Assembly: GCA_010405405.1 (NCBI GenBank) | Contig: MU004243.1 | Coordinates: 739,340-803,339 of the forward strand | Direction of reading: 5' to 3' | Origin: Microthyrium microscopicum | Lineage: Eukaryota | DNA: 64,000 nt | In this document: positions 1,120-56,851 of the stretch, in pieces | Numbering within the stretch: position 1 is the stretch's first letter | How the letters are laid out: every line of letters begins with the position of its first letter | Position numbers and translations under genes: made by a program | The notes under the pieces: model-generated | Database searches by the model: none | What the model saw: only the letters and a program-made list of their open reading frames with translations | Told to the model about the DNA's origin: nothing

Positions 1120-3954
1120 ATGGCGACACACATCACCGCGCATCAAAACTTGCTGATACACTTCGCGTCCTCGCGCCTACGACTGGATCCCTGGATCCCG
1201 TCTGTTTATGCATGGACGCTTGAGGTGCTCGGCTTTTATCTACGGATGTGCAGCTTCCAGTCTCCTGTTGCAATGGCAAATGGTCCACTATCTCGTCCTA
1301 TGCTCCCAATGCTTCTCGTCGCTACCAAGCCAATCCGAACTCACATAATGTCAAACAAAGGCCGATTGAGCAATAACCAGGCATATAACGAGTCTATCAA
1401 CAGATTCTATTGTCTAATATTATGGCACATGCTCATACTAGCGCTTCATCATCAGTCATCGCCAATTGTTTCGATCCGACTCAACAGCTTTATAGACTGG
1501 CCTTACAAATCCACGATCGTATACTTCGTCATCAAAGTTTCTATTGTATCAGAGCTTGGTATCGCTTGGAAATATGAGCCAGTGGAGTCTGCTTTAAGAT
1601 TGTTTCACCGAACATATCGCTTGGTTCCATTTATGCTCAGACTTGTGTTTGGGGACATTGTTTGGTCCACTCCAGGTCATCTAGGCCCGCTCCTCGCGAA
1701 GGCAGCCACGATGACCGCTTTCTTCTATCTCAGCAGTTTTCTCTTCGAGGCGATTGGCAATTGCTTATCCATGTTATATCGAGGAGCGATTTACTTCGAC
1801 AGAAGAGAGTGGTACTGGCCAGTTTGGGAATTCGCAGTTTGCTTGAGCTGGTACGTTGGGCAGCAACTGAAGCCGTCGGAACTGTCGGAACATCTCGATA
1901 ATAGGACTCGGGCTTGTTCGAAACAATTCGAATACACGACTTTGCCAGCTGATAAAGACACCATTCGGTTACTGCTAATTCACCCAAGACCTCCCACGAG
2001 TCCGTTGAAATGCACGCTATTCGAGACAACCATTTCTTCTCTACCACAGTACGAGGCCATATCCTACTGCTGGGGAAAGCCGGAGCGTAATTCAGAAATA
2101 GTGGTAAACGACAGGCTGCTCAAAGTTCCTGCAAACGCGTTGGAAGTCCTGAAAAACCGAAGCTCAGTATGGGAGCCAAAACTGGTCTGGCTGGACTCGG
2201 TCTGCATCAACCAGCGCGACAGCGTGGAAAAAGGCCGGCAGGTTTTGTTGATGACGGAGATCTACGAGAAAGCATCGACCGTGTCTGTCGAGCTTTTGGG
2301 TACTCCAGATGAAGAAGCAATCATGAATGCGATGACCTATAAAGCAAGTCAGCTTGGCGTTTCACCAGATTGCATCGAATCAATATGGCAAATGGAGAGT
2401 GGAGTTAAACCACATAAGACGGCAGTCCTGAAAAGATTTATGGCGAATATAGCAGCAGACGTCTTTGAAGAGCTTTATCAATCTTACTGGCGATGCGAAA
2501 CGACACATGAACGCGATATGTACGATCGTTTTGCTCCATATCGATTGTCACTATCTTTTGACATATTTCGTCAAGTGCTATCCAATCCCTGGTTTGAGCG
2601 CATGTGGATTGTGCAAGAAGTCGCTCTGGCTAGAGGCATTCGAGTTCGATATGAAGGTATTGAAATTCCGTGGGATCACTTTATTGCTGTGTTCGATTTA
2701 ATAAACACTAAACATCGCACGACAAGCTTGCTTCTCATGGACGGCCTTGACATAAGCCCAGAAGGAGAGTTCACCACGGACAAGACGCATCGCCCTATTG
2801 CATCTGCTACTTTTGACGCAATAGCCGAGATACGGAGGAGGATTCAGAGCAAGGAAGAGCTTCGTCTCGTGGAGCTGCTCGAAAGATTGCGCATGTTCAA
2901 GGCTACCAATGACAGAGATAAGATTTTCGCAATTCATGGTCTCTGCTCCACAAAACCGAATCATCTCCTCGAACCTGATTACAGTAATTCCAGAACCGAT
3001 GAGAGCATTTTTATCAATGTAGCGGAGTGTCTCGTTGAGGAGGGCGACGCATCTAGAATGCTTGCGGCAGCTGGAACCCCATGTAGATCAAAAGCCAGCC
3101 CAAAAAGTCCAATGCTTATGTCAGGACACCTTGACCTCGTTCAATCGAGTACAGTCTCGGGGCCAAACGCTTATCTCCTGACGAAAGATCTAGTGCTCCC
3201 GTCATGGGTGCCAGACTGGACGAGAATGCCTGCGGCTGCTCAGCTGTCTTTTGTCGAAGAGTCTATCGACTATCGAGCAGGAGGCATAAGAAAAATGAAA
3301 GCTAAAGTCAAGAATGGAGTTCTACACCTTGAAGACGGGCATATATTTGATAACATTGTTGAGCTTTGCGATACTTGGGAATATCACACTATACTTGACG
3401 AAGCATGGGAACAATCTAGAATTGACAAAGCCTCGGATACGATCAGGTTATCCATCACTAAAATACTTGAATCTCCACTAGCCAAATCCCGGTATCAGGG
3501 GGACAAGCCATTGGAAGAAGCTTTCTGGAGAACTGCCGTCGGCAATCGAGTCTTCGAAACGAATGGGAGCCCGGCTCCACCCAACCTCTCCGATGGCTTC
3601 AACCAGTTTAAAAAATCTGTGTATGGCCCGGTCAAAGAATTGGCAGAAGCATGGGGCTGGAAGAATGACAGAGATCTTCACATGTCTTCTATGGCGTCCT
3701 TTCAGCGCGCTGTGCTTAAATGTTGGGGTGGTAGGAGGCTCTGCATTACATCACTGGGTTTCATTGGAGCTGTTCCTCCATCATCCGAGCTTGGTGATCA
3801 AATTGTCATTTTCGCTGGCATGCAGACTCCATCAGTTTTGCGAGGCATGGCAAAACATCAGCATCGATATCTGGGCGAATGCTACATTCATGGGATTATG
3901 AACGGCGAAATGCTGGGTCCTGTGTGCGACGGCCGTCATTTTGAAATAATATAA
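1120..3954 (+). CDS. HET-domain (heterokaryon incompatibility, het-6-like) protein with long hydrophobic N-terminal extension
   Basis: 944-aa ORF with YEAISYCWG, WLDSVCINQ..EKGRQV.LM.EIYEKA, WFERMWIVQE, ATNDRDKIFA, LPSWVPDW, C-terminal GECYIHGIMNGE. True start uncertain. Confidence 0.9.
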   Translation: MATHITAHQNLLIHFASSRLRLDPWIPSVYAWTLEVLGFYLRMCSFQSPVAMANGPLSRPMLPMLLVATKPIRTHIMSNKGRLSNNQAYNESINRFYCLILWHMLILALHHQSSPIVSIRLNSFIDWPYKSTIVYFVIKVSIVSELGIAWKYEPVESALRLFHRTYRLVPFMLRLVFGDIVWSTPGHLGPLLAKAATMTAFFYLSSFLFEAIGNCLSMLYRGAIYFDRREWYWPVWEFAVCLSWYVGQQLKPSELSEHLDNRTRACSKQFEYTTLPADKDTIRLLLIHPRPPTSPLKCTLFETTISSLPQYEAISYCWGKPERNSEIVVNDRLLKVPANALEVLKNRSSVWEPKLVWLDSVCINQRDSVEKGRQVLLMTEIYEKASTVSVELLGTPDEEAIMNAMTYKASQLGVSPDCIESIWQMESGVKPHKTAVLKRFMANIAADVFEELYQSYWRCETTHERDMYDRFAPYRLSLSFDIFRQVLSNPWFERMWIVQEVALARGIRVRYEGIEIPWDHFIAVFDLINTKHRTTSLLLMDGLDISPEGEFTTDKTHRPIASATFDAIAEIRRRIQSKEELRLVELLERLRMFKATNDRDKIFAIHGLCSTKPNHLLEPDYSNSRTDESIFINVAECLVEEGDASRMLAAAGTPCRSKASPKSPMLMSGHLDLVQSSTVSGPNAYLLTKDLVLPSWVPDWTRMPAAAQLSFVEESIDYRAGGIRKMKAKVKNGVLHLEDGHIFDNIVELCDTWEYHTILDEAWEQSRIDKASDTIRLSITKILESPLAKSRYQGDKPLEEAFWRTAVGNRVFETNGSPAPPNLSDGFNQFKKSVYGPVKELAEAWGWKNDRDLHMSSMASFQRAVLKCWGGRRLCITSLGFIGAVPPSSELGDQIVIFAGMQTPSVLRGMAKHQHRYLGECYIHGIMNGEMLGPVCDGRHFEII

Positions 3955-11922: not shown

Positions 11923-14262
11923 ATGTCTATCTTATTCTCCCGGGCCAGGTCAAGCTTCGGCTATGTTATGATTCTCATAGCAGGCCTACTGTTTCAGCAT
12001 ACACTCGGTTTGTCTCTCTTTAACCCAGAGTTGGTGGAGAGACGCAGCTCAGACAACGTCTCCGCCAATGGACAGTTACTAGAACTAGACAACGTCTTTT
12101 TATTGCACCCACAAGCAGTCGCCGCAGAACCATCGCCAAATCACCAAAGCACCTGGAAATTCTCACCACGCAACTTATTTGCTCGCGATACAGGCTGCTG
12201 TAGCGGAACATGCTTCACTGGCACCAATCTAGTCTGCTGTCCCACATCAGCAACCCCGTTAGCATGTAACAATGGTATAGGCTGCTGTACTGGTGGTGGA
12301 AGTTCCGAATGCTGCGGTCATGCCGATGATATTTGTTGCCTTGGAACCTGTTGTCTTGCAGGCTATGTATGCGCTGGTACTAATAACGACCAATGTGGAT
12401 ACAGAACGTACGTACAGAATCGATAAGCTTTTGTTGCTTGGGCATCGCTGCTCGTACTATCAAATCGAGGCACGCAAGCTAACTTTACCAGGGTGACCGC
12501 GACCAACTATTATACGACCTTTGGAACGACAACTATAGTAGTCACAAGCACGAGTACAAACACCTTCACTGCGACTTCTACGTATACATCCACTTCCACT
12601 GTCCTTGAAACAGTGTCGAATGTAAAAACTGCGACGGCCGTTGACACTACAGTTATTATATCCAAGAGAGGCATATTCACTACTCCAATTTCGAGCACAA
12701 GGCTTACCAGCACAACCGCTACTAGCACAGAAACAACGAGTACAGAGGAGACGGTACCACCCAAGGCCACAGAGTCTCCAACTCATTCTTTGTTGGCGCC
12801 AGAAACTATTGACAGCCAAGCACTTCTGGCCCGAAAGGGACGCATCGGAAAGAGAACCGTCGATCCCATTACCGTAACAACCACGCAAGTGGTCAACGGA
12901 GGCACTTATACTCAAACATCAACATATGTGGCCGGAGCGTCAGTCACAACCACTTTAGTTGTTACAGCTTATGCTACAGTCACATCAACAGTTGTAGTTG
13001 GTGCTCAAACAACTGTGCATGTAAAAACCACATCTACTACGACCACTTCGGCGAAAGCCACCGCGGCTGCAAAATCTACTTCAGGCAACGCACAAGCAGC
13101 TGGCGGGCAATCAAATAGCGGTCAGACAACAAACCCATTTACAGTTACGGGCCCTGTCGCGCCAGCTTTATCAACTCTCCGCGCTCTTGTTCCAGCCAGC
13201 GCTCAGACAGATCCTACTGCTGCCTGCTTCATCCAATCCTCTTACTCCGCCTGCTACGCCACCCCTACCTGGTGGTCATCTCTCCCCGGCGACTCTCAAA
13301 CTTACTTTTCATCCGTCAACTCAGCCAACAATGCTGCTTGTACATCGTGTCCTGCTAGCGGTGGCTCCGCTGGTCTTTCCACTGGCGCCAAAGCCGGAAT
13401 TGGTGTCGGCGCCGTGGCTGGTGTCGCAGGAATCGCCGCACTGGTCGCTTTTCTCATTAAAGCCGGCGTTTTCTCCTCTGTAGCCGGTGGCGGAGCGGCA
13501 GCGAACTCAGCAGCCATGACTGCAAATGTATCTTCATCCGCGGCACAGGCTGGTAATGGCCAGGCCGCGATGAACAGCATGTCAGCTGGCCAGGCGGGTC
13601 AGGCAGGACAAGCACAGATGGCTCAAGGCGCGATGGGCACTCAAGGAGCTGGATGGAGTGGAGTTACAGGGCAGTCCGGCGCACACGCTGGCTGGTCTGG
13701 GGCGATGGGTCAACCCGGTGCACAGGCAGGATGGACTGGAGCGATGGGCGCTCCTGGAGCTCATGGAATGCCTGCGGGTGAAATAGCTGGACTTACAGCA
13801 GCTGGTGTTGCAGGCGGTGTCGCGGGTGGTGCACTGCTGGGTCGAAGAAGAGAGAGTGAGCAGTCAGTATCTCGACGGCCTGTAGCGGGCAGTACGATCA
13901 GCCATGATTCTGGACTTTACACTGCTTCGCCTACTATGTCCTCTTCACAACCTGAGGGCTACACGGATTATGACCATCCGCAAGTATATCAGAACCAGCA
14001 GCCATATCAACAACCACACCAACAGCCATACCAGCAGCCATATCAACAGCAATACCAGCAACCTCCACAGTACCAAGCTTATCAGCAGCCTCAGCAGCAG
14101 CAATATCCTGGTGGACGCCAGAACATGACTCGCTCGATTCCAGAAATGGGTCCTGTGCCTGTTAGTCCGCCGCTATCTAGTAATGGAGGCCAGGGACACC
14201 ACGAGATGGCAGGGAATCAGATTTATGAGAGTGATGCTGCGGAAAGAAGAGGGTACCCTTGA
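11923..14262 (+). CDS. Type I membrane mucin-like protein: CC-repeat Cys-rich head, Thr/Ser stalk, TM helix, low-complexity cytoplasmic tail
   Basis: ORFs 11923-12426 and 12493-14262 joined by intron 12408-12491; repeated CC doublets; LSTGAKAGIGVGAVAGVAGIAALVAFLI TM; QQPY repeats. Confidence 0.8.
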
Positions 14263-14484: not shown

Positions 14485-17400
14485 TCAAGTCTTTCCGCAT
14501 GTCTTCAGAATCTTTTGTACAAGATCATCGTTTCGTCTGAAAGACTGGGGAAACTTTGCCAGATCAGAATCTTTCAAACCCCGACGGGCAGCACTAGCTT
14601 CAGTAAGAATGTCCTCATCCAGCTTCGCAACCTTGCCACCACCGCCGATGCCCGCCAAAAGGCCTATAATGGCAAATGGGGCAGATTCTGGATCGCTGAC
14701 GATGTCTTCAATGGTCAAAGCAGCATTTCCAGCCTGGTCGATTACCAGTGCAATTCGAGAGACTGCGACTGCGCCACCGAAGGCTGCACCCAGTGCTTCA
14801 CCTGCAAATGGAAGGACCATAAGAACGATGCTCAATATCATCAAGATTAACTGCTTCTTTTTTTCATCGTGCACCTTTTGCCCGATGTCTTTGATGTTCT
14901 TCATGCTTGCGACGGCCTCTTGCAGCATAAGTATCGGCATGGACACTCCTGTAACAGCATCTTTCTCATCGCCTTGCAAAACACTCATACCCAAATCTGT
15001 AGACACTGCAAGTATGCCGATCTGAAGGTCGGTAATGTTCGGCATGACCTTTTGAATGATATCTTTCGGATTCGGCACATCCACCTTATCTGATTTCTGC
15101 GGAAAAGAGTGCCTTAAGTGTTGTAGCTTTTGGCATGGTTGAGATCCGCCTCCCGGTCGAGATTCCGGATTCAGTGCACAGGTGTATCCATCGTTAACAT
15201 CTCCAAACTTCACCCAGTCTTTAGGCATCCCAAGGTCCTTGGATATGGCATCATAGAAACCATTAGCGTCATTCAGCTCATACGTTATGTCGTAACGTTG
15301 ATCTAGCTGCCAGAACTTGTTAGGAGGAGGACATTGGTCAGTGCCTTTTTTGTTCCCAGCTTCCCAATGGCAAATAAAGTATTTATTGCCAGGCCCTTTG
15401 TCCAGGTCCATGTAGTCCTTCAGGCGGGGGCTGATACTGTCTTTGACCCAGTCCACATAGTAACCGAACTTGTCGTCATAACCCGCAGCTGCATCGGCAT
15501 AATCACTGCTGAAATTTTCCATGGACTCGGAGAGAATTTCCATTGTAAATTGAGCAGTGCAGTGAGAAGGGACACTGTCAAGAGCGGCCGCAAGGCCTTC
15601 CAAGTTTCCCGGGTTCTGACTTGGGTGACAAGCAAGATCCGGCATGACAAATTCAGTGTCATTACCTCCTCCAACAGAGCCTTGCCAGTCTTCTAAATCT
15701 ATTGCCCAATCGGTTGTCCCAGCAAAGTTCAGGCTCTTAATCCAGTCGGTTCGCCGAGCTTTGACATCGCGATCCATCCAAGCCACCCAGTCAGCTGCGG
15801 CGGCATCCCCATACACAAGAATGTTGGAGTCAGACTCGACATCTACGTAATTGGTGAAAATTGTGTAGTTGGCCGGGTTCTCAATATTGTCCCTGATCTC
15901 AGCATCGGCAATGTAACCAGCTGTCTCTGTGCATAAGCCGGGATATGCATCGGAATGAGCTCTAGAGCCTGTGTATGTGCACATTGGGCCGTCACATTTC
16001 CAATCTGACATTCGAAAGCTTCGACCATAACTCGAAACTCCGACCATGATTTTGCTAGCGGAGACTCCTGCTTTGGTTATCATAGAAAGAACGTTGGAGG
16101 TCTCAGTTTTATTGACATGAGATCGTAAACAATTCCCCCCTGGGCAACCGGGAATGGCATTTTTGTTGCCGTAATCTGTTTCAAGCGTTAGATTATTATT
16201 ACAAACATCCAATAGACCTACTCACCCCATTGTCCGTGGAGATCGTAAGTCATGTAGATGAAATAATCTACATATTTCTGCATGTCATTGACAGGAAAAG
16301 CTCGCAAGTACCAGAAAGAGGCCGGCAGAGCGATTGAGAGAGACGAAATAGCTGGCATTTTTGATCGAACGGACTTCAAAAAGTTGAGATAGTTTTGGCC
16401 TTCTTCTGCGCCACCTGGAGGAATACCAGGAATATCCGGTACTCCTGGGTACTCCCAGTCAAAGTCTAAGCCATCCAGGCCATACTTGTTCAGAAAGGAA
16501 ACAACATTATGGGCAGTGGCTTCCACATTGGCTGGTGCGGTGGCCTGTCGGAATATCATGTAAGTCGCTGGTTCTGTAGAAAATGCCCAACCTCCGAAAG
16601 ACATGATTTTTTTGATGCCCTTCATTTGAACGAATTTGGCAAACTGATCTTCCATTCCTGTTATGTTTACTTGAAAGTTTGGTGTTAGAGTGGCGAAGGA
16701 AAAGTGTATGTGAGTGAAGTTGTTTTGGTTAATCTGGGTGACATCCATGTTAAGGCATCTTCGATCTTGGTTCCACGCGGTAAAATATCCAACACGAGAG
16801 AAGCTTGAAGGTTGGTTTTTGTTATTTACTATATCCATGCCGCAGGAGCCTGCGCAGCCATTCTGTTGTGTGGAGGTGCCTGGTGCACCGGTGTCTGCTA
16901 GATGCTTCGTACAAAAGTCGTCAGTTGTTCCACAGTAGCCCCAGATACTGCAGCATGCATTCAGCGGGCATAGATTGAGATCTTCTAGCTTGGTCCCATT
17001 TGTAGGCTTCTGTGTTCCTTGGACTTGCGGGCCGCACACCAATCCTGCCGACTGAGCAGGCATTGGCGGATCCCCGGGACTTAAGCATAGTAGTTGACCT
17101 GGCTTGAGTTTGCTACAACCTGCCCAGCCCCAAGTATTCTGATTGTTGTTTGTGATATCACCTTGTTTTATGCCGTTTTTGTTTGCAATGGCCCAACACC
17201 CTTCACCTGCAAGTACCTGGTACGTGAAGCAAGTTCCATCCGGACCCGGTGAGACTGTTGGAACGGCGATCAACGTTCTGGTAGAGTTCCAATTGAAGCC
17301 AGTGGCGTTCACATTGATAGATGAAGCACCCGAGAACGAGCTGTGCACACCTATCTCTATTTCTCCACCGGACTTGGGAAGATCTAAACACTCAGAATTG

Positions 17401-18143
17401 GACCACGTGCTAACTGCTTCCTGAATCTTGGCCAAGTCGGGGATTCCGCCACCAAATGCTCCAAATATCCAAGATTCGGAAGATCTAGGAGTGCAAAGTT
17501 GAAAGACCTGATTGCTGGGATCTGTATGTTTCGCGAAAATATCGAGAAGATCGGCTCCTGCAGATTGTTGAAGACCGAAACCAGCATAGCTGCCAACAAT
17601 GGCACCTCCCGACTTGGCGAAGAGGAGCCTCTGACCGCATGACGGGGTGCTCTTGAAGTAGTGTGCTAGATGCTTTGCTGCAGCTGAAATATCGGGCACA
17701 GTCGCCGGAATAATGCTGGCACTGCTTCCCCAGCGAGACATGATTCCAACTTTTTCGATCCTGGTGTTACATTCAGAACTGTTGGGAGCGGTATCCAGAA
17801 CTGTGCCGTTTGTCGTCGTATTTGTCTCTTTGTATTGGGGTGTGATTGATGCTGATGAGGAGTAGTCTTCCGCGCCGCCAGACACGCAAACCCGAAGAAC
17901 TGTTTCAGCATTTGAATCTTTGTCCGAATAAGGAACATTTATGTCGAATAGCAGTGTCCCCATGCAGTCGATTAAGACCTCTAGTGAGTGATAAGTTGTC
18001 CACTGAGATGGATCGGGTCCGGCTTCATTGCATAAGCGCGGACAAATGTCAACATAAATCCCAAAACGACCTCCAGTTACGCCCTCAGAGGTATGGAGGT
18101 TGCAAAGAATCAAGGAGACGAGGAAATGGTATCGGATTTTCAT
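14485..18143 (-). CDS. Subgroup C GH18 chitinase (LysM + CBM18 + GH18 + hydrophobic C-terminal region), killer-toxin alpha/beta-like, ~1200 aa
   Basis: Signal peptide; LysM (YQVLAGEGCWAIA..WGWAGC..LCLS); hevein-type CPLNACCSIWGYCGTTDDFC; SFGGW and catalytic DGLDFDWEYP; MTYDLHGQW; intron 16176-16225. Confidence 0.93.
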
Positions 18144-18486
18144 GCTGAAAATGAAATGTAGTTTACTGGCAACCTGCGTCTTGAAGAAAACTTAAAGCAA
18201 AAGGAAGGATAAGCTAGAAACACTGGAGGATCTCTTATCTATATGCCTAAATCCTTTTTGTTTCAAGTCAGCAATGTTAGAAGAAATTTGATAATTGGGC
18301 GGCGATGCTAGCTCTTCGCCGCATAAAGTGTTGCGAAAGGACTGATTGAGCAGGTAGCAAGCCTAGGATTTAGAATATAAATTGAGGATTCAGCACACAG
18401 TTTACGGGACAGTTCAGAATCCAGAACTTTTAGAGATGACATCTTAATTAATTCTACCTGGTCAATGAAGAAGGCGATCTGTTCCT

Positions 18487-20100
18487 TCAGGAAGAATGCT
18501 CGCCTTCTTGCAAATTACCAAAATTGACATCGCCTTTGTAAAGTCCCATCCAACCACCTTCCCAATTAGAGGCCTTTTCTCTCAGCTCCTCCGACGCACA
18601 TACGAAAAGTTTGATCATATTTGCATTTACTTGAATGCCTCTGCACCCGTAGATTCCTTCATCAAAAATCTGATCTAGATGACCTGCTGAGATACTCCCC
18701 TGTAACCAAGTCGTGGTCGGCTCTTTGTCACGAATAACCGTATTTTCATTGAGCCTCTGAACGAAATTACCCACTTTCGTGAGATCGATGTCCATAGCAG
18801 CAGCACGTCGCTTCAAATCTTCAGCGTAGTGCTTGTTGTGGCTTAATTGAGCCTCCTGAAGCAGAACATTGTGAGGTACAACGTCCAGGGAGTCGTAAGT
18901 GCTCTGATAATCGGCTACAATACAAGCGTGTGCAATTTGCTGCTTCATAGAGGGCCTCCGATGAGCGAGCTCCTGAAGTGTCGTTTGCTGTGGCCACGCA
19001 GGATACCATATCAGATAAGGTAAAACATAATCTGGAGTCTCGTCTGTTATTGAAGATATATCGTTGTCCATGATGAAGCGCGCATTGATGGCCGCTTCGA
19101 TATCCCCTATGTCGCCTCTTCCTTTTAGTGAACGCTTTCGCTCCTGGAACCACCATTTGGCAAACATGGTGCTATGGTATATTCCTCGGATCACGCAGAA
19201 AGTCTCGAGTTGCATAGATTCTGGGCGACGAAGGCGAGCATATCGATCAACATTGCCGTCATAAGCAGCCATCAAGATGAGTAAATCTTTATTTACGGTA
19301 GGAAGATCGAGTGGTAAGGGATTGTAAAGGAGAGGAACATGTTGAGATTCTAGATTCCAGGTTTGTTCGAAAGACCACTTGTATCCTTCTTCGTCCACAC
19401 AACGATCCTCTGTGATGTCGAAATAGTGACCTGACCAGTTATCCAGCCTGCGCTTTTGGTCGAGTGATTTCCGGACAGCAGTATCGCCGTTTAGAAAGGC
19501 GCCAGCCCTGGGATTTTCGATGTTGATAGATCGAGTATAATCGTCCATAATGGAATATCTAACAGTCTGACTGATGATATCTTCGAATATTATATGCCCA
19601 TTTTCCGTACCCTCTCGGGCTTCCTCTGCTATTGATACATCGGGGAGCAGTCCAAGCTCACGGTACAGGTCGACATATCCTGCTGCTGCACATGCTCGAC
19701 CAACGCTGTAGCGCATGTTGGGATAGCGCTGCGCTAGAGTGCGATATGTTCTTTCGGAAGCGAATTCTGGATGCCAGATGCAGTACGGAAAATGTTCTGA
19801 TTGATCGATTTCTGGTATAATGTTGCTCATGATGAATCTGGCGTTACATGCCCGAACAAACTGAGGAAATGCTCCGTCTCGGCAGAGTTTGTTTATCTGA
19901 GAAGACCTCGCAAAAGAATAGTGGTATCGGATGCCGCGAACAATGGCCAATTGGGCTCTAGTATCACTGGCCGCCACCGGACTGTCTAGAGGAAGAGACT
20001 TCCCTTGAAGGGCCAGTATGCATTGCTCTGAATCAAATCTCTTAGGTTCAGTTTCCGATTCCGATGTTGACGACCAATCGCTTGTAATGCTATCCGGCAT
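18487..20100 (-). CDS. Non-secreted hypothetical protein with internal two-fold repeat
   Basis: Intronless ORF, first ATG 20100, no signal peptide; duplicated unit RGI..H..FA / NARFIM.N / PY.IW.P / L..R.P.M..AC..A.Y / EA. Confidence 0.8.
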   Translation of the reverse strand: MPDSITSDWSSTSESETEPKRFDSEQCILALQGKSLPLDSPVAASDTRAQLAIVRGIRYHYSFARSSQINKLCRDGAFPQFVRACNARFIMSNIIPEIDQSEHFPYCIWHPEFASERTYRTLAQRYPNMRYSVGRACAAAGYVDLYRELGLLPDVSIAEEAREGTENGHIIFEDIISQTVRYSIMDDYTRSINIENPRAGAFLNGDTAVRKSLDQKRRLDNWSGHYFDITEDRCVDEEGYKWSFEQTWNLESQHVPLLYNPLPLDLPTVNKDLLILMAAYDGNVDRYARLRRPESMQLETFCVIRGIYHSTMFAKWWFQERKRSLKGRGDIGDIEAAINARFIMDNDISSITDETPDYVLPYLIWYPAWPQQTTLQELAHRRPSMKQQIAHACIVADYQSTYDSLDVVPHNVLLQEAQLSHNKHYAEDLKRRAAAMDIDLTKVGNFVQRLNENTVIRDKEPTTTWLQGSISAGHLDQIFDEGIYGCRGIQVNANMIKLFVCASEELREKASNWEGGWMGLYKGDVNFGNLQEGEHSS

Positions 20101-20958
20101 GACTTGGTTGTAGACTACGAGAAACAACTGTATTGGGCTGTTTTAGTGTTGACTTAAGCCAAAGATTATTTCAAAAATGAAGAAGAGAACAGAAGTTGCG
20201 GTTTGAAACACAGAGGACTTGTGCAAGCAAGGTGGAGTATCGAATATAATGGATCAGGTAAGAAGAGGGCTACGTCCCGTATTCAGACCTTTTATGTTGT
20301 TCTCCCTTGTCGTTAATCGAATCCTGCAGCCCCGTTGATCCTTCCTTGGTCGATGATGTATCTATCAGAAAGGGCATACCTTAGGGCTCATTTCCTTATA
20401 TCCCGTCTCGCCTTCGACATGAAGGCATGAAGGCATGAAGGCAGGCTTCCTACCCTAAACCCCTACTTTAAGAGGAGGTATCTACCATAACCTAGAGGGA
20501 GTAGTTGTAGAAATAGTGTATGAAGCTTTTATGCATGAGATTGTAATTTTTCGCCCTCTCGTGATTGAGTCTAAAAGAACATCGTGATTACCATAATAAA
20601 ATAATTCTCGCCATTGGGTCTTTCCTAAGATTCCCATTCGGTCTTGTCAGTTACCCCCCGCGTAGAAGACCAACTCCATCGACCTAGATTGCTGCCTACC
20701 TAGGTAGGTACCTACCTGTTGCTACTTCTTTGATGTTTTGTGTTGCTTTACCGATACTCAAGTCCAGCATACCCGGGGTAGGTAAGGATCATTGCAGCGA
20801 AAAAATACGAACATGCACATTGATAAGCGTCAGACAAGAGACGACACATGAATAGCGACTTCATTCTTACTGGCATAACAGAGTAAACCTTCAGGGGCAT
20901 TACATACTAATTCTGTCTTTAGATTTCGGCAAAACTTGTGTTTGGGAGGTGAGCCGTC

Positions 20959-21993
20959 TTACTTGCATACTCCACCTTCGTTGTGCTTTACCATTGCTTG
21001 CCAAGATATTTTCCAGGCTTCTTTTACCTCATAATGAGATATTGTGGCAGGCTGGTATTTGGGAAAATACTTCTCTTCCCATTTCCCCTCGCCATAGCCT
21101 TTGACCCATTTCCTAAACAAGTTTCTTTTCGTACGGCTGTCGAACACGTCGGGGTTTGCTTTGATAGTAGTGTCGGTATTAACTTTGTTAAACGGATCCT
21201 CTGGATCGAGTTTATTATCCTCTGGAATTGTTTTAATATTGTCTTCAGGAAGTCCAAATCCATTTTGTGCCTCCTCTCTTGTGAGATCATTGCGCATGTA
21301 GGAATAGAATTCTCCGTTTCGCAGGTATTTAATGGCTTTACCGCAGTCCTGCATATTTTTGGCTTTCTCAGCAACATCATAGTTAATGTTCTGGGCTGGA
21401 CCTTTCCATTCGCTTTGTGGAGTTTGCAACGCTTTTTCCATACTCTGATGCACTAACTCTACCTATTGAGAATTAGTTTGCGTAGAAAATATTCTTCAAA
21501 TCACTCATGTCGATCGTGTCGGTACCTTTCAGTGGGACAACCACATCTAGACCAATCATGAAAAATAGAAGTTTCCAGAGAAGAATTAACCTACCAATTT
21601 AAGATACACGTTCCCAGTTTTCAGCAACCGATAGTTGATTTTCCTCGGTTTGAAAAGATTCACGTAGCCGGCGGCTTTCAATTCATTCGCCACGACTTCG
21701 ACATCCCGTCCCTCGCGTGGTCCTTCAATCTGGCATCTATAAGGATACACATCCGAGACATTGTCAATGCATTCTTGAAATGTGAAAGTGTTCCCAGGCC
21801 CTGAACGCGAAGGCTGCAGCCCTCCTCTTTGCTGTGGTATCGGCAATATCACGTTTTGGGTGTTTCCCTCGATTGTATTGAGGATCAGATATGCCTCACA
21901 GAAATATACTCTTTCGTAGGAACCTGAGAGACCTTTTGCAAAAGCAGTGGATGTGAGGCACGAAAGGCCGATGAAAGCTGTTTGAAAAAACAT
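20959..21993 (-). CDS. Secreted ~300-aa protein, candidate gamma-toxin (anticodon nuclease-like) subunit
   Basis: Signal MFFQTAFIGLSCLTSTAFA; intron 21463-21594 joins the two ORFs in frame; mature N-terminus KGLSGSYERVY; ends SHYEVKEAW..GGVCK. Gene model is solid; function is inferred. Confidence 0.7.
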
Positions 21994-23268
21994 CTAGACC
22001 AAGTCTTTCTCGTAAGAGATGAACTTCTGGTCATAAACTGAATTTGAGCACTTGTTTTGTCAGTTTACAAACAACTTTGGAGCAGTAGAAGCATACATAC
22101 AGCGACTGTAGAGATACCAAATTGGTTGGTAAAGAACGAATAATCTTGCAAGCTGGGACACGACCGCTTTCCATAGATGGTGCATTTCTACATAAAGACA
22201 TTTCAGAACTCTCTACGCCGCAATTCAAGAGAGAAGAAACAAACGATGCGTATATCGTTCCTTAAGGATTCATTTTCACATCCCTAGCACGCAAGGATGA
22301 GATAAAGCTGATAGTCAGATTGTGTTACAAGACGGTGCTTCAAACATCCTAGTGCCTATCAGCCACTAAGACCAGGAATCAGTCCGGAAGGAATACTAGA
22401 GTAAAATCAATGGTAAGAACATGATATACCCTTGTACGTAGGTGAAATTACCTTTTACTACCATGGGAAATGTAGCATATTGTCTAGCAAAACCGACTTC
22501 GCCGCTCAAATCATACAACGTTGTGGGAAGGTAGTGCACTCCAGCTTTTGATGTCAGTCAGGGCACGTAGGATGCATATAGATATGATGGAGTTAATTGT
22601 TGACCCATAATGAAGTGCGAGAAGAAGGCTTTTACTAATAGGCAACAATGTTGCATTGCATTTCTTATCTGGCTTATACTGGATATCGTCGGTGCGAGGA
22701 TATTCATAAAGTAATCTGCCTCGTCATTAGTTATATCTAAGAACCTGAAGAAAGTTTGACGTCGCCATAAAATAATTTGCAAAGTAAACTACTGTGCCTC
22801 CTTATTCCTGGAAATCCAATGTGTTTGAACTACTTTGGAGGGTTCATTACTGAATCCTGTCAAGATCGTAGTGGGCATCACTCCCAACTTTACCGCCTCA
22901 ATGACACAAACAGAAGGTTACATTGGCCATTATATACCTATAGCACATCACTTGGACAGTCTCGATCTGTGCAAGGAAAATACTGGGCCTCGAAGGAATG
23001 TATGTAGTAGTCAATTTGGCTGTAATTGTACAAGGTGAGCAACTGAGAAATTGATTGTTGTGAAAGTAACTTCCGTGACGGAAGCAGATATCTAGCAAGT
23101 TTGACAAGGTAAATATCATGCGCCTCGACCAGTCGGCTCACGCCTAAGATCTCTCACTTCGGTACATGAATCTTATGACGGACAAACTCTCAATTCATTC
23201 CTTCAACAAACACACGTTATCCTATACTGTGCAACTTGAAAGACCGAAGACATCCCCAATACCAGAAT

Positions 23269-24226
23269 ATGACAATGTCTAGACTTAATGTAGCTATACA
23301 TCTTTTTCTACAGGCATCTACTCTCAGGACGACGATAGCTCAGGACAATCTTCTTGCCCCCCTCTACATCGACAACGTTGAGTTCTTGGCAGCTTCATCA
23401 AATCTTGCGAACGTTTCGTTCCCAATCCTCCAGACTGCGTTGAAGTCTCCAAATGCAACGAACGAGTCTTTCTTCACTGGTTATGATTGGACGAAGCCTT
23501 TTCCTGGTTCTGCTATCGATGGCCACGGAGCCCATCTTCGTGTCGCGTTCGACATTCCCATTCCCGATAACATTTTGGAAAATGCAACAACAGCTGTAAG
23601 CTCCCTCACTTTCAGTATCCCGAATAAAATGTCAGGGAATGACGGTGCTCCTACAGCCATGGACCCCTCCTGGTACATTTGCCGACACATTTTTGTTACC
23701 GACAAGGTGAATCATACCACTGTTGGCAAGGGAGGCGACTCTTGTGGTTTTCTCACCTCTGAATGTAAAGAAGACTTGAAGGGCAACCTCACCCAAGGTT
23801 GGATGAAAACAGACGACAGTACTCCTTGCTCCGGTCTGGCGCTTGATCCTATACCGCAAAGTTGCATTGGCTCATTTGGGTTCGCTCGCGCTGACGTGAT
23901 TGGTAAGTGTTGGCTAAAAAGTGAAAGCTGCCGGAACAACACTTCTAACATTTACTGCAGCTTTCGACTCGAGCTATATGGCGGACGCGGCACAGGCGAA
24001 GCTTTTAGCTGTGGATGAGCAGAATCAGAATAATTGGAGGATTGGAACCGGTTATCACGACAAAGGGAGTCAAGCTGCCTATGACACGGCCAATAACCGA
24101 ACATTTCTTCTTGTTAATGTTTGGGGTTATAGCGAGAAGCTTCCTCAAGGAAACCGAAAAACTCCAGATGCCACACTCTCATGTTTGTCTACGAAAACCA
24201 ATGCTACAAATCCGAAAGATGAATAA
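23269..24226 (+). CDS. Secreted Cys-containing hypothetical protein
   Basis: Signal-like N-terminus, many N-glycosylation sequons, several Cys; intron 23903-23960 joins ORFs 23236 and 23921. Confidence 0.75.
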
Positions 24227-24738: not shown

Positions 24739-25349
24739 TTACATTATTCGAGAACGCTTGTGGGCCCTGTCGGGTGACACAACGTAGACACCTATATTTC
24801 CATTTCCTCCAGCAGCTTGGTATCCTACATTCCAAAGTTAGATGGTCAAGAAATGTTGGAGGTGCTTATCAACTTACCTCCAACTCGTCCATTATTGTTG
24901 CAGTTGTCAATGACCCATCTTACGGCACTGGCCACATCTCTACAGTAGGACCTCTCGGCCTTCCGATCACGGCTCATGCCCATCACTACTGCATCTCCTA
25001 CTTGGCAGAATATGGAGTGGGATGTTGCGTCTGGCACCTCACAAGCTGTCGTGCCTTTGCTCAGAAGAAAATGGTAACAATTCTCTGCGTTCCCGGCATC
25101 TACAGTAGTACCGTAAAGGCAGGAGGAATCAAGTTGCGTTGTCACATTCCAACCATTAGTTTGTACTAGCACATTTGTAGATACCGGTGCTTGCGAGCTT
25201 GCGATCGAAGACGCCGCTGCATAAGTTGACATTGTATCTGCATGCGCCACTGTAAAGGGGGAGGCAGCCACCGAATTTGCAGTCACTGTGGCTAGTGTAA
25301 AGATTGTATAAACCCAGGCCTTGGTGCGAACAGCTTTTTGGAATGCCAT
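24739..25349 (-). CDS. Small secreted Cys-rich protein (possible KP4/Ecp2-like fold)
   Basis: Hydrophobic leader; 6 Cys; SYCRDVASAVRWVIDNC..GRVGG; intron 24825-24877; last exon YQAAGGNGNIGVYVV..RIM*. Confidence 0.75.
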
Positions 25350-26183
25350 TTTCGACAAATTGAAGTGATTACGAAATGAGAAAAGATAGCTTTTATTTTT
25401 TATGATACTTGAAAACCTTCTCTACCTTACTGGGCCACTTATAGCAGCTCCTGTGCAGGAGAGTGGGATAACTACTGTCTGGGTTAACGTAACGCTTACA
25501 ATGATCTACAGAATTAGCTTTGATTAAGAAATCTAATGCTGTTCCAACTCAGGATCAGTACCGCTTCAGGCTTAACATGTGGTACGTGATGCTATACCGG
25601 CTTCAAGGTGTTGTTAGCTTGCAAGCGGCGATGGAAAGTATTGCGTCCAAAATACATGTACTAGGATTTATACTGTGCCGCCCACACCTACACGCCGCTC
25701 ATACTGCTCCAGGCGACGTTTCTCTATCCTTACTTTCCAGCAATCTTCTTAGCCTACTTTCTCAATCCTATTCAAATCCCAATGTACTTTACGACAGATC
25801 AAGTTTGTGTCATATCTCAAGCACAGGATTATAGCCTTGCTAAGATCATTGACTTCCCAAATACCGTGCGGAGCTTCTTCAGAAGCCTCTCATACATTGG
25901 CTGCAATTTGAGAGGCATCACCTATCAATCAGGCAGGTAGTAATTAACAGGATCACTGAGTGAGAGGACTGCCAGCTGTATAGGATTTCATGAGACGAGT
26001 CGAAATATGTCAAGACTTCAAATTTATAAATTATCCTAGACATATCACGCGATCTTCCAAAACCGTTGTGTATAAAAAGGGAATCTCCATTGAGTTTCAA
26101 GTAATCATTCAGCAACAACTTTCCACCTCAACGATCAATCCAACCGTTTTACATTTCGACCTCCTAACCAAGAAAACTACAAA

Positions 26184-40748: not shown

Positions 40749-42824
40749 ATGCGATTGTTACACACGACAAATCTTCGCGTCCAGGAGTTTGTTGATGCTG
40801 ATATCCCATCATATGCCATCTTGTCGCACACTTGGGGAGAAGAAGAGGTATGATTCTCAGCACTTCATGGCTATCAAGCGGTGACAATGTACATGTCATG
40901 CTTATTTATGTCCTCAATTTGTACTGACTTTCAGCTAGATTTCACTTCAAGATATACAGTCTGGCTCCTTCAGTAAGCGCAAAAGCTTTCCCAAACTACA
41001 AGGTGCGTGTCAACGAGCAGTTCAAGATAGTTTGGAATGGATCTGGATCGACACCTGTACCATCGACAAGACAAGCTCCGCGGACTTAAGCGAAGCAATC
41101 AATTCCATGTATACATACTATGCCGAGTCCAAAATTTGCTATGCTCATCTTGCTGATATTGACGGTAACACTATTCCCTACCATTATGACACCGAGAACT
41201 ATCTGAAGACAAGCCGTTGGTTTACCCGTGGTTGGACCCTTCAAGAGTTGATTGCCCCGCGAGATTTAATCTTTTTCGACCAGAAATGGGTTGAATTGGA
41301 AAGGAGATGGGGTCTTTCTAGAATTCTCACAAAAATCACGGGTATTCCTGAAAAAGTACTATGTGGAGAATCACCGTTTCAGTGTAATGTAGCTCAGAGA
41401 ATGTCGTGGGCAGCGAATCGAGTAACCACGCGCAAGGAGGATGTGGCTTATTGTCTAATGGGACTTTTTGAAGTGAGCATGGTAAGTTCTCCACCGAAAA
41501 TTCTGGATGTTGCTACCTTCCGGTTCTGTCGTAGAGCAATATGTGCTGCTGCGCTGAAGACAGCATTTGGTCTTATCACACGCATTCGCTTAGTAACAAA
41601 GTTTTGTACTCTTATACTAACCACCATCAGCCACCACTATACGGTGAAGGTGCTGAAGAAGCATTCTTAAGACTTCAAGAAGAAATCTTGAAGCGCAGTG
41701 CTGATCAGACTATTTTCTTATGGACTGCAGCACATGAACCTCTCAATTCAGGACTATTGGCATCGTCTCCTCAGGCATTCTGTTCGCACCCCAAATGTTT
41801 CCGATGGGCGTATGAGCCATTTGGAATTATGGATGACCGGGACTTCTATTCCGACTTGCGGCCGCTCTCTTTTTGGCCTGTTGGAGTTTTTATCGGCCCG
41901 GACTACCAACTGGCGGAGACAGTACCCACTGCACGATTACAAGCACCTTTGTTAGCCGGCATTGGGTCTCATGGCCTCCAGATGTCCCTCCTCGCCCAGA
42001 TCGTCTCCAGTCATGCCGAGGAGTCAGTACATACGTCAACTACAGTCTGTCTCGACGTGGTTTTCCAAACCGAGGCTTTTGGTGGTGTCTTCACTCGTCT
42101 CAGGTACGAAGTCAAGCGCCGAATTTTTATCAAGCTCGAACCAGAAGCTAGCATTGGCCGTAAAGAACTCCGCCTGAACAGACTAGGCGACCTCAGACGA
42201 TACTCTCACGTGCAACCTCAGTCAAACTATTTCCTTGATCTACAATCGGTTCGCTTTCATCGCCAGATTCTCTATCTATCCCAAACTCGGGTTGTGCAAC
42301 GCGGTAACTTCGCTTGTTTCCGTCTCCGGTACCAGCTGTATGAGTTCACTGTACATAACTCGTATCTCATTGGTAGAAATGATCAGACACAAACTCAAAC
42401 TCATGGCCTGCATTCCATCCTACCCGATCGTATTTTCTGTACGTCTGGTGGCCTCATTTACTTCTCTCATCGCTGTGATGAATGCAGCGATAATCGAGTT
42501 TTGGTGCTCGCATTTGGCACTCACCGCTCGAAAATCAATCATGATGCGTGGTGCACGATCAAGTTAGGGGCTGGGGTTGCTGATGACCTGAGGCCAAACG
42601 CCAACTTAGACCAGCAGTATATGCAAATGGAGATGTTGAGTGGGCGATATACTGGAATAGCCGAATATTCATTTCCTGGCTGTCGCCGGCGACTGCGAGT
42701 TGACGTAGTACTTATGAAGCGCACTGGGTATGACATATGTATTGATTATTGGCCGGATGACATCTTGTCATGTGTATCAAAGGATTCGATGAACCTTGAG
42801 TTCTTGCGAAGCCGAGACCAATGA
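40749..42824 (+). CDS. HET-domain protein (HET-E N-terminal type)
   Basis: MRLLHT..YAILSHTWGEEE, WIDTCTIDKTSSADLSEAINSM, WFTRGWTLQELIAP, RMSWAA.R.TTR.ED.AYCL, PLYGEG; introns 40848-40938 and 41482-41630. Confidence 0.92.
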
Positions 42825-52407: not shown

Positions 52408-55301
52408 CCCTTTGCATCCTGATGTTCTGTGCACCCTTGGAGGCGTCGTTTAAGCTATATTCTTCTAACCTAAAAAGGCAATATTCTAAGCGATTAAAAG
52501 CTATAATTAATATAGGGGCATAAGTTAAGGGGTCTTCTAGTTACTAAGCTAAAATATACGCATCTAAATATAATTATTAAAGTTAAATTACCTTCGTTAA
52601 GCCCTTCTTATCGTATAGTATAATCTCATAATCTTTATGTCTAATATACTAATCCTATAGGATGCCTATCCCTACTAATTTATTAGCAAACTAGATATTA
52701 AAATAGCTAGATATTAGTATATACTATCTTCGTAGTAATTAATAAAATAAGTATTATAAAGAGGTATAGCTTTTATATATTCCTTATAGTACTAAAATAT
52801 TATTCTTATCTTTAAGTACGTATTATCTACTTAATAATATTTCTATTAATAATAAGTATATTATTTATGCTTTAAAGGTAGTTAGACTATTTTATAGCGC
52901 CCTAAGTAAAATCTTATAAGAGAGAGTAAAGAACTATAAATAATATATTTTAAGCTATAGCTATCTCGTATTTTAAGGTTTTTATAATATAAGCCTATTA
53001 CTATTAGAAAGCGCTACTTTCTATATATCTTCTAATATACTTTAAAGTATAAACTCTATACTAGATATAAGTAAAATTATTATAAAGAAAGTACGTTATT
53101 TTTATTATACCTAGTTATAGTAGGGTATATACGTATCTAAGGCTTTAGTACTAAAAGGTACGTATTTATAACGATAGTATTAATTAACTATAGAAAAAGT
53201 AGTATCTACGTTCTAATGTCTATAATTAATATTAGTAAAGAGCTAAGAATAAAATAAATTAAATAGTAGTACTTTTAAGTTAATTAGATTTAAAACTAAA
53301 AAGTTATACTATTAATCTAAAAATATAAAAGATTTCTTACCTCTATAGTAGACTATATAGTAGGATTATTATTAGTTAGTAATATTAATACTACTTATAA
53401 ACTAGTTATACTTAATAGCTACTATAGGCTAGAGATATTAAATTACTACGTAATTACTCTAGATTTAAGTTACCTACTATTTATTATATACTAATTATAT
53501 ATTTAGCCTCTTTCTAAATACGTAAAGCATCTTAAAAGATAAGTAATAGGTCGTTAGGAATCTTATAAGAATATAATTGCACTATAGAATACTAAGTACT
53601 CTATAAATACTTTTAGTATCTATTCTACCCTATAGCTAATTATTAGATTCTTCTAATTCTAAGGCGTATTAATAAGGATAATCTTTAGATTTTATATAAG
53701 TTATTCTAGAGTATTTAAAGCTATAATTCCTTAGGATCTAAAGAAGATATATATTATTAAAGAAGTTATTAATAAAGATTAGGAAGTATTTAAGTATAAA
53801 TAGTAAGGTAAGCACTATTATAAGAACTACCTAAGATATTATATTTATATTACTCTAAAAGCTTAGAGTACTTAAAGAAGGACTCTAAGAATAGATATAG
53901 GTAAGTATATCTATATTACTATCTAATAATAAGAAACTACTAGGAATTATATAAAGATAATCTTATAAGTAGCCTAAAAAGTAAGTAGTAAGTACTTTAA
54001 AGTCTTTAAGAATTAGTTTCTCTTTTATATAGAGTTTTATACTAGTTCTACTAGTAAATTTTACTATTATCTTATTAATTAAGACGTAGTTTATAAGAAT
54101 TATAATATCTTTAAAGCGCTAAAAGAAAGTAGAAGATAAGGGATCTAGCTTCTTAAATAAGGCTTCTCTTTTTTATATAAAGGTCTTTAGTACTTCTATC
54201 TTATTAAGAGCTTTTAAATAGATATTCCTTTTAATAAGCTACTAGTAATCTTATATAATAAAGCTTAAGATATTATTTAATAGTATAGTAGTATTAGAGC
54301 TTTAAAGATCTATTATATCTTATACTAAGTATACCCTAAGATATATAATAATACTAAGGAATATCTAGATTTCTTCTACTAAAATAAGTATAATTAAATC
54401 TATATCCTTTTCTATAGTAAGAAGATTAGATTATAGATATAAATTAGTATTAATAGTAATTAAATTAAAGTCTTAGTCTTTCTATAGTATATTAAAAAAG
54501 ATTAGTAGTATATTATAGTAAGTATAGAGTACCTCTAAATTTTATAGTTTACGTTCTTTAATTAAGGAAGCTAGATCTACTAATCTTCTAGGTAATTAAT
54601 ATAGAATTTAATATTATAATACTAGCTCTTTACTATATAAATTATCTAGTAGCTTTATAGAGAATTTATAATATTATAGACGTTAAAGAGAGATAAAATC
54701 TATCTCTAGTTAATCTTCTATAACTACTTAACGTCTACTTCTTAAAGTATAAATAATATCTTTATCTATAGCATCTACTAAGACGTAAGCCTAAGTTAAA
54801 ATTAGGTAGAGGAACTTTAGAATATAATAGTAATAGTAATTTACTAAATTCTAAGAATAAAAGTATATTATAGTTAATATAAGAAGAGAGAGCTTTAAAA
54901 AGAATACCTTTATCTTCTTCCTTAATATCTACTTATAAAACTATAGATAGAAACGTATTAATATAGTTTAGCATCTTAGTTAGTAGACTAATACTAGAGG
55001 ATAAGATTAAGCTAATTTTAAAGGGATAATAAGTACCTAGATTAGAAGATTAGTAAATTTAGTTACTATAGTATTGTTTTACTAATTCTTATCTAATTAA
55101 TACTAAAATTTTAAAAGTTATAGAGTTAAATTATAGCTTACTAACGTATATATTTTTATTAAGGGTAGACTTTAGGTATATCTAGAGGGAAATAGAAGAG
55201 TAGTGGTCTGTTTGTATATTTTGGGTTTAGCGTTAGTCCTAAAGTGGTTATCTTCTGGCTGATGTGGTGGATGTTGATAATTTAGTATAGGATGCAAAGG
55301 G
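52408..55301 (-). mobile_element. RIP-inactivated piggyBac DNA transposon (~2.9 kb)
   Basis: 13-bp TIRs CCCTTTGCATCCT (52408-52420) / AGGATGCAAAGGG (55289-55301); very AT- and TpA-rich interior; minus-strand relics revert by undoing C>T/G>A changes to SIDEMMVKFTGR..KPIPEGFK (~54075), DNFF..LR..G..GT (~53770), YNQFMGGVDIADQ (~53400). Confidence 0.9.
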
Positions 55302-56851
55302 ATAACTTTATTAAATATAATCGGAAATTCGGAATTATGATGTCTTTTGTCAAATAGCATTGGTCGCAGCTATGAAACTTGATGGGAGCCTGCTAGTTGT
55401 TATGCCATTCCGTTGGGCGAGCACGATTCAATATCTTCGTCATCTTCATGGTTATATCTCTTAAATTTACATCGCGAATAACAGAGAGTCCGAAAAGGAA
55501 CCAGGCTGCATGTAGGAGCATCATTCTTGACCAATTTCAATTGCTAAGGTAAGGCAGGTAGCTGCTGGCACGGAATATTGGGCTGAGTAGATTTGCTTCA
55601 TCTCGCTGATGTGGGTGGCATGACCAGCGAATGCAAACGACAACAGTACGAAATCCAAATCGAAGGCACAAAAGTATCATTTTCAACTCCTATTAGCGAC
55701 GACAGCATGCTGCTGACAAGCGGCTGATGTTATGCAATAGGTCATATTTGCTTGGGCAAATACTTCTCAAATTGTCTTATGAATCCATAAGCCCTTTGAG
55801 AACTACTAGCAAGAAGCTAACCAATGTTCTGATGGATGTGGAAAGCATATATTCGTAGTTTATCCTCTTTAGGTATCGCAAGGGTTCAAGTCTAACGGTT
55901 CAGAGCTTTAATAGGCCCAAAATCTCGCCAATGGCTACGAAGTCAGAACAAGCAGTACATATACCTTGTCTAGGTACCCACATTAGCATGTGCGAAGGAC
56001 CGGTCATATCACGTATCATTACCTTTGTGAAAGTATACGCAGATCGTGTTGATATTGATTTGAAATGGGTTGACTGCATTTGCTGACTGGCAAGCTGTTC
56101 ATGCAACTTTTGATCTTGACCGCCTTGAGACACGAGGTATAAAAGATGCGAACTTCGAGGAAAACTTGAAGCCATGCTTAGATGAGCGAACACCGAGTGA
56201 TTGAGCAGTCTATGTCTAGATCCATACACATAGAAGACATGAGTGATGCAACTTTCGTAGTCCGCCGACCACATGTTCACAAGTCACCGCTACCTTTTTC
56301 CATGGTATGAGAGTACAAGACACTTATATAGATCATGAAAACACCTTAGGACAGTCGGTTTCATCATAGAACGCAGATCCTGTGGATATGAACCAGCATG
56401 GTGTTCGCACAAAGCAGCCTCACATCACAGGCAGCGTTATCAGTTGGTCATTATGCGGTAAGATAGTTGGGCTTGGGATCAATCACTTAGCGGCCATTGA
56501 TCTCTCGGCGTGAAGATTTCGCGTTGCTATGGGCCGCGTCTCTTGCCATATTACAACTACTCAGGCACCTCAAGAAAGCAACATACAGTCTCCTTAAGCG
56601 CGTCTGGGCCTCTTCTAAAGTGCACTGTGATCGATAACCACAATCAACACTGCGCGATTGACGTGATCCAGCGTACTGAAGCTATCTGGAAAAGCTCCGA
56701 TATATCATTCTATCGCTTGCAGTGGCATTGAACTCTCGAGAGATCTCTAGGGCGCGTAGCGATTCCTTAGTATCCCTCTACGGCGGTCGCGTTGGTGTTT
56801 AGTTTTGCGTATCAATCGCGTCCACATCACGTTGACGCTCACGCGGAGCAT

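Follow-up and report, generated by a model that had tools for sequence, protein, structure and literature searches.

A candidate gamma-type subunit of a nuclear zymocin-like killer toxin in Microthyrium microscopicum

Does a small secreted protein encoded in the genome of the leaf fungus Microthyrium microscopicum (Dothideomycetes, Microthyriales) act as the cargo of a zymocin-like killer toxin? To our knowledge, zymocin-like toxins are the only secreted anticodon nucleases of eukaryotes, and each unrelated group of toxin sequences may have its own RNA target. Homology searches miss such toxins, which are found through a positional signature taken together with gene context. The gene considered here lies in a 64,000-nucleotide stretch of fungal nuclear DNA (hereafter the window). 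The original prediction had been made from the positions of a few residues, by comparison with zymocin gamma, where the residues in question are Glu9, Arg151, His209 and Cys231, and it proposed a divergent anticodon nuclease.

The first point concerned the gene itself, which the ORF track was said to cut in two. This is the case: two minus-strand ORFs are joined by a canonical intron (Table 1), and the spliced product (133 + 167 aa) is letter-for-letter identical to a 300-aa database protein, P0003, recorded as 'hypothetical protein BT63DRAFT_418411 [Microthyrium microscopicum]'. On the minus strand, the last codons of exon 1 are ...TAT CTT AAA TTG, followed by the donor GTAGGT; the intron, which contains stops in all three frames, has a CTAAT element 11 nt 5' of the acceptor AG and ends with ...CTAATTCTCAATAG, and exon 2 opens with GTA GAG TTA GTG. 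The initiating ATG is immediately preceded by an in-frame TAG. Codon usage was scored as log-odds, with nine ORFs of the window that have Pfam support as the training set (training range 0.07-0.25). Exon 2 reached +0.21 and exon 1 +0.052, a value that tops its six frames and stands at the low end of the training range, while the intron, read in the exon frame, gave -0.57; by this measure only the two exons look coding, which supports the spliced gene model. From these sequence features we infer that the intron is removed in vivo; in a run labelled with the same species, which was searched for RNA support of the splice, 0 contigs matched positions 20800-22200. Antisense to exon 2 lies a 157-aa ORF (20983..21456, plus strand), with a best antisense codon log-odds of +0.049 versus +0.21 in the sense direction; it is most likely a shadow ORF and no gene.

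Table 1. Coordinates of the candidate toxin gene and of its two neighbours in the window
Feature	Coordinates	Strand	Details
Candidate toxin gene	21993..21595 + 21462..20959	-	two exons, product 300 aa
ORF track, first ORF	21586..21993	-	135 aa
ORF track, second ORF	20959..21453	-	164 aa
Candidate toxin, exon 1	21595..21993	-	signal peptide and species-specific N-terminal part (residues 20-133)
Candidate toxin, signal-peptide codons 1-19	21993..21937	-	
Glu27 codon GAA (mature Glu-8)	21915..21913	-	
Candidate toxin, intron	21463..21594	-	132 nt, phase 0, GTAGGT...CTAAT...AG
Candidate toxin, exon 2	20959..21462	-	residues 134-300 and stop; conserved C-terminal domain
His276 codon	21036..21034	-	
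Cys299 codon	20967..20965	-	
Immunity candidate P0010	18487..20100	-	537 aa, without signal peptide, internally duplicated
Chitinase	14485..18143	-	1202 aa; exon 1 18143..16226, exon 2 16175..14485
Chitinase intron	16225..16176	-	50 nt, GTGAGT..CTAAC..CAG

With the reading frame in place, the residues on which the comparison had been built could be located in the product. The predicted signal peptide of 19 aa (MFFQTAFIGLSCLTSTAFA), judged by eye, has a hydrophobic core and an A-x-A motif (A-F-A) ahead of Lys20; if cleavage takes place after Ala19, the mature chain begins KGLSGSYER, as had been read, and Glu27 becomes mature residue 8. At the opposite end, the histidine of ISHYEV is His276, with 24 residues following it, and the penultimate residue is a cysteine, Cys299 of 300. 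The two arginines put forward as candidates were also recovered, YLRNG corresponding to R181 and YMRND to R190. The mature chain holds five cysteines (32, 75, 87, 173 and 299), an odd number, and three histidines (138, 276 and 293), of which His276 is the sole conserved one. In a random secreted protein, a Glu at one fixed position has a chance of ~6% and a Cys within the last five residues one of ~7-13%, which by our own arithmetic gives a joint chance of < 1%, neighbouring genes not counted.

An exhaustive phmmer search with the exon 2 product (167 aa) against 1.84 billion representatives (E <= 0.001) returned 6 proteins, namely the protein itself, three relatives and two repeat proteins, and a toxin annotation is carried by none of these 6 matches. 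The relatives are P0004 (165 aa, 54% identity), P0005 (165 aa, 47%) and P0007 (145 aa, 30%), the last being an uncharacterised protein of Penicillium canariense (N7482_005837). A further relative, the 210-aa fragment P0009, came from a profile search. P0004, P0005 and P0009 originate from short ENA or JGI contigs, and two metagenome scans (queries A2 and P0005) gave no locus for the relatives' DNA. Both repeat proteins were dropped as spurious: P0006 is a low-complexity repeat, and P0008 (411 aa) consists of ~50-aa repeats (…EEQK.ALLEGF.KQNTYTT…KANNV…W..RYG.PLG.HH), whose weak match (E 9e-4) to the T-x-KAN…W..YG stretch of the candidate toxin was judged to be due to chance or to lie at the level of a motif.

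The window protein was aligned with P0004, P0005 and P0007, and 21 columns of this four-sequence alignment are invariant, including R181, T-x-K-A-N (232-236), R246, W252, Y256, G257, His276 and Cys299. The histidine and the terminal cysteine, for which conservation had been proposed as a check, are therefore present in 4/4 aligned sequences, the window protein included. For the arginines the outcome was mixed, in that R181 is invariant and R190 is found in only three of the four, with R246 as a further invariant Arg. P0005 and P0007 moreover contain no cysteine other than the terminal one, which fits an intermolecular bond.

The N-terminal part of the protein behaves differently. P0004, P0005, P0007 and P0009 all lack the 133 residues encoded by exon 1, and with them a signal peptide, and when exon 1 was searched for among longer proteins, the sole match out of 159 candidates was the protein itself. 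A Met-Val pair present in all 4 relatives aligns to Leu136-Val137, two residues past the intron acceptor. Either a 5' exon is missing from the relatives' records, or elsewhere the domain is a stand-alone intracellular protein. The annotation might even mis-fuse two genes, one for a 135-aa secreted protein (21993..21586) and one for an intracellular protein of ~160 aa beginning at Met141 (ATG at 21441); the second product would then match the stand-alone relatives of ~165 aa, which have Met-Val in all 4 and the N-terminal half in none, and exon 1 is the exon with the weakest coding score. We hold such a mis-fusion to be very improbable. Only ~145 nt separate the stop of the first ORF from the first ATG of the second, a distance that hardly accommodates both a terminator and a promoter, and the splice signals within this spacer (donor, branch site and acceptor, phase 0) are perfect; in addition, the window protein has a Leu (TTA) where its relatives start with Met. 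On short contigs, ORF callers take the first post-intron ATG as the start, and a conserved, lone cysteine at the extreme C-terminus suits a secreted, disulfide-linked subunit more than a cytosolic protein; both points speak against two separate genes and suggest that the relatives' records may be truncated at the 5' end.

A single spliced gene may still have arisen from two parts. A lineage-specific exon, bringing the signal peptide and the Glu-8 part, would then have been spliced onto an older domain of ~165 aa in a recent two-module invention, the domain itself being a stand-alone, non-secreted protein with a Met-Val start in Penicillium canariense and three uncultured fungi. We regard this origin as unlikely. 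If it were true, exon fusion could build gamma-toxins from intracellular proteins, and the His/Cys/TxKAN domain would represent an undescribed fungal family, possibly an RNase, older than its use in a chitinase-delivered weapon.

Beyond the positional residues, no other identity to gamma-toxins had been visible, and the searches bear this out: the protein has no sequence similarity to a known toxin, nuclease or Pfam family. Pfam returned 0 families for each exon product and for the whole protein, sequence searches of the PDB gave nothing below E 0.2, whether the query was either exon product, the C-domain profile or the immunity candidate, and the ESM Atlas offered no usable feature match for the candidate toxin, its structure rows having TM <= 0.36 with a model pLDDT of 0.30. 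The protein would be assigned, on sequence, to a new group, which is set apart from the groups Tox-P1 to Tox-P9 discussed below by the annotations of the phmmer matches.

AlphaFold2 modelled the whole chain, from a 4-row alignment, with a pLDDT of 47.5 (residues 1-170 < 50), and the C-domain alone with a pLDDT of 71.9 and a pTM of 0.63. The C-domain model is a long helical hairpin (domain helices 30-61 and 138-160) around a beta-hairpin and short helices, and His276 is placed in the last helix. Among gamma-type toxins, a structure has reportedly been solved for PaT (PaOrf2) of Millerozyma (Pichia) acaciae alone, by Chakravarty et al. in 2014. Foldseek and VIA-align searches with the toxin models gave generic helical matches only, with no PaT among the matches listed; models as weak as these suggest that the missing match should not be counted against a shared fold. 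These results could be read as pointing to a cargo that is delivered by a chitinase and is no RNA endonuclease, acting instead on another target (membrane, wall or an intracellular molecule), with Glu-8 and the His as coincidences, and a C-domain model made of a helical hairpin and a small beta-hairpin, without a nuclease-like match, is in line with this. We nevertheless consider it improbable: Glu-8, a C-terminal His and a C-terminal Cys co-occur here as they do in assayed toxins, His276 is invariant, and since the fold of PaT itself is described as unlike any known ribonuclease, the lack of a nuclease match is expected and says little.

The genes that follow the candidate toxin bear on the question too. 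Toxin, immunity candidate and chitinase form a trio on one strand, spanning 14485..21993 (7.5 kb), with intergenic gaps of 858 nt between the candidate toxin and the immunity candidate and of 343 nt between the latter and the chitinase. The chitinase has a signal peptide at its N-terminus (MKIRYHFLVSLILCNLHTSEG), and Pfam places LysM at residues 308-354, Chitin_bind_1 (CBM18) at 390-413 and Glyco_hydro_18 (GH18) from residue 451. The DxxDxDxE motif is intact (DGLDFDWE at residue 557), so that the domain features expected of the killer-toxin-like subgroup C-II of GH18 chitinases (signal peptide, LysM, CBM18 and GH18 with DxxDxDxE) are present in this candidate member. Its hydrophobicity peaks at about residues 1080-1120, and Cys1199 of 1202 stands four residues from the end (...ILKTCGKT).

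For the gene in between, P0010, the nearest ESM Atlas clusters are from Ascomycota, with PF28449 YKP1_C in 88-94% of their members; the feature scores are 0.97, 0.96 and 0.95, and come with no alignment statistic. The predicted structure of P0010 has a TM of 0.81 over 492 residues to YKP1_C-bearing clusters, and neither our local copy of Pfam (for PF28449 YKP1_C) nor the PDB gave a match. ORF1/YKP1 of the K. lactis plasmid pGKL2 belongs to the killer-plasmid Imm (immunity-related) family according to a recent study (PNAS 2025, PMC11848437). As a lead, then, the cluster membership and the modelled structure suggest that P0010 resembles the YKP1/Imm immunity family. Residues 51-162 and 301-418 of P0010 align with 32% identity (E 4e-16), revealing an internal tandem duplication. 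A complex prediction with the immunity candidate and residues 20-300 of the candidate toxin scored 0.00 in two runs and weighs neither way.

Further ORFs flank the trio. Just upstream of the candidate toxin gene, 23236..24226 (plus strand) and 24846..25358 (minus strand) encode proteins with signal-like N-termini, several cysteines and no Pfam family; they may belong to the cluster or be secreted proteins unrelated to it. Two plus-strand ORFs without a Pfam family lie directly downstream of the chitinase gene. One is Cys-rich and secreted, with 167 aa (11923..12426); the other, of 589 aa (12493..14262), is Thr/Ser-rich, ends in a Gln-rich tail and contains a hydrophobic segment, in the manner of a mucin-like wall or membrane protein.

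In the screen of Heneghan et al., candidate toxins of this kind are recognised by a secretion signal, a Glu at mature position 8 or 9, a C-terminal His equivalent to His-287 of PaT, a Cys near the chain's end with which the beta subunit can be disulfide-linked, a length of about 200-366 aa, and an adjoining chitin-binding GH18 gene with a terminal Cys. The Microthyrium protein has a signal peptide (by eye), Glu-8, His276 and Cys299, is 300 aa long, and its GH18 neighbour lies on the same strand, 2.8 kb away. The co-directional trio, the agreement with these screening criteria, and the invariance of His276 and the Cys strengthen the gamma-toxin-like reading. We therefore consider a gamma-type cargo subunit to be the likely product of this gene, as part of a nuclear zymocin-like killer toxin system whose cluster is made up of toxin, immunity and chitinase genes. 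As a gamma-toxin it would probably belong to a new sequence group, and a nuclease activity is suggested by analogy with the assayed toxins. The divergent gamma-toxin originally proposed is thus partly supported, through the gene trio and the screening criteria; the likeness of fold that was to accompany it was not found with the weak models at hand.

Heneghan, Salzberg and Wolfe (bioRxiv 10.1101/2024.10.25.620242) describe nuclear clusters in Pezizomycotina with mutually unrelated toxin groups, Tox-P1 to Tox-P9, examples being FOVG_08799 of Fusarium oxysporum and a toxin of Colletotrichum siamense. According to the preprint, only 4 of 50 Pezizomycotina candidates lack Glu-8 of the mature protein and only 5 of the 50 lack a C-terminal Cys, and of 31 chitinases encoded next to a toxin 29 have a terminal Cys; introns are common in the cluster genes, and an Imm-family gene is present in some clusters only. 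The sizes given for Pezizomycotina toxins range from 226 to 366 aa (GBE 2026). The Microthyrium locus resembles these clusters in being nuclear, in combining a small secreted protein carrying Glu-8 and a C-terminal Cys with a LysM-bearing GH18 chitinase that has a terminal Cys, in its candidate Imm-type gene, in the introns of both toxin and chitinase genes, and in a candidate toxin that falls within that size range; it differs from them in its host, which is a Dothideomycete, and in the duplicated, 537-aa form of its Imm-like protein. Of three candidates tested according to the same preprint, two abolished growth of S. cerevisiae and one was non-toxic, which means that the criteria do not guarantee activity.

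The candidate toxin might be an unrelated small secreted protein, an effector or an orphan, that merely happens to lie near a group C chitinase. Orphan secreted proteins are abundant in fungal genomes, this one has no homology to any toxin, and some C-II chitinases are stated to have no toxin neighbour (bioRxiv 10.1101/2024.10.25.620242). This account, however, needs Glu-8, a conserved His and a lone terminal Cys that is matched on the chitinase to coincide, and it also needs an Imm-like gene in between and a shared strand to have come about by chance; we attach little probability to it.

Zymocin of Kluyveromyces lactis is encoded on pGKL1 in the order ORF2 (the alpha/beta chitinase precursor), ORF3 (immunity) and ORF4 (gamma-toxin). 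In zymocin and at the Microthyrium locus alike, carrier, immunity gene (a candidate in Microthyrium) and cargo are neighbours, and the immunity gene takes the middle place. Both cargos also start with a secretion signal and share an N-terminal Glu as well as His and Cys towards the C-terminus, and both carriers combine chitin-binding and GH18 modules with a hydrophobic portion. Unlike zymocin, which resides on an AT-rich, cytosolic linear plasmid, the present locus is chromosomal and intron-bearing, has neither a DNA polymerase gene nor terminal repeats, and shows no sequence similarity to it. [quoted passage not shown]

By analogy with these systems, we infer secretion, disulfide linkage, uptake, RNA cleavage and immunity to proceed as follows. 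The 300-aa precursor would shed its 19-aa signal peptide in the secretory pathway, and Cys299 of the cargo would form a disulfide with Cys1199 of the chitinase. The LysM, CBM18 and GH18 modules may then dock the carrier on the chitin of a competing fungus, and the carrier's hydrophobic C-terminal segment could aid the cargo in crossing the membrane. Once in the target cell, the cargo would cleave a tRNA anticodon loop or an rRNA loop, with mature Glu-8 and His276 as the putative acid/base pair, together with one of the conserved arginines, R181 or R246. In the producer, the cytoplasmic 537-aa Imm-like protein would neutralise toxin that re-enters the cell; with its two modules, P0010 might bind a pair of toxins, or a single toxin through two sites.

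Chromosomal zymocin-like clusters in filamentous fungi were first described in 2024, and the Dothideomycetes are a large class rich in plant pathogens. The main text of the preprint states that no cluster was found in this class (bioRxiv 10.1101/2024.10.25.620242), and a survey of literature on Dothideomycetes and zymocin met with no report of such a cluster, either in that main text or in the available parts of a later review and the GBE paper, both of which omit the class. If our reading is correct, a complete trio in Microthyrium microscopicum widens the range of the system to a class without a reported cluster, adds a toxin group without detectable relatives among the known groups and possibly with a new RNA specificity, and provides a cognate immunity candidate of unusual, duplicated form.

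Two other features were observed elsewhere in the window. A 3-kb block at 52500..55500 has a GC content of 21-32%, compared with 44-56% elsewhere, and RIP-like indices of 1.41 for TpA/ApT (coding 0.6-0.65) and 0.57 for (CpA+TpG)/(ApC+GpT) (coding about 1.4); it is probably a RIP-degraded repeat or transposon. Two plus-strand ORFs encode HET domains (heterokaryon incompatibility, PF06985), at 1120..3954 (E 1.7e-23) and at 41032..41670 (E 3.6e-06), and these conflict-system genes share the window with the candidate toxin cluster.
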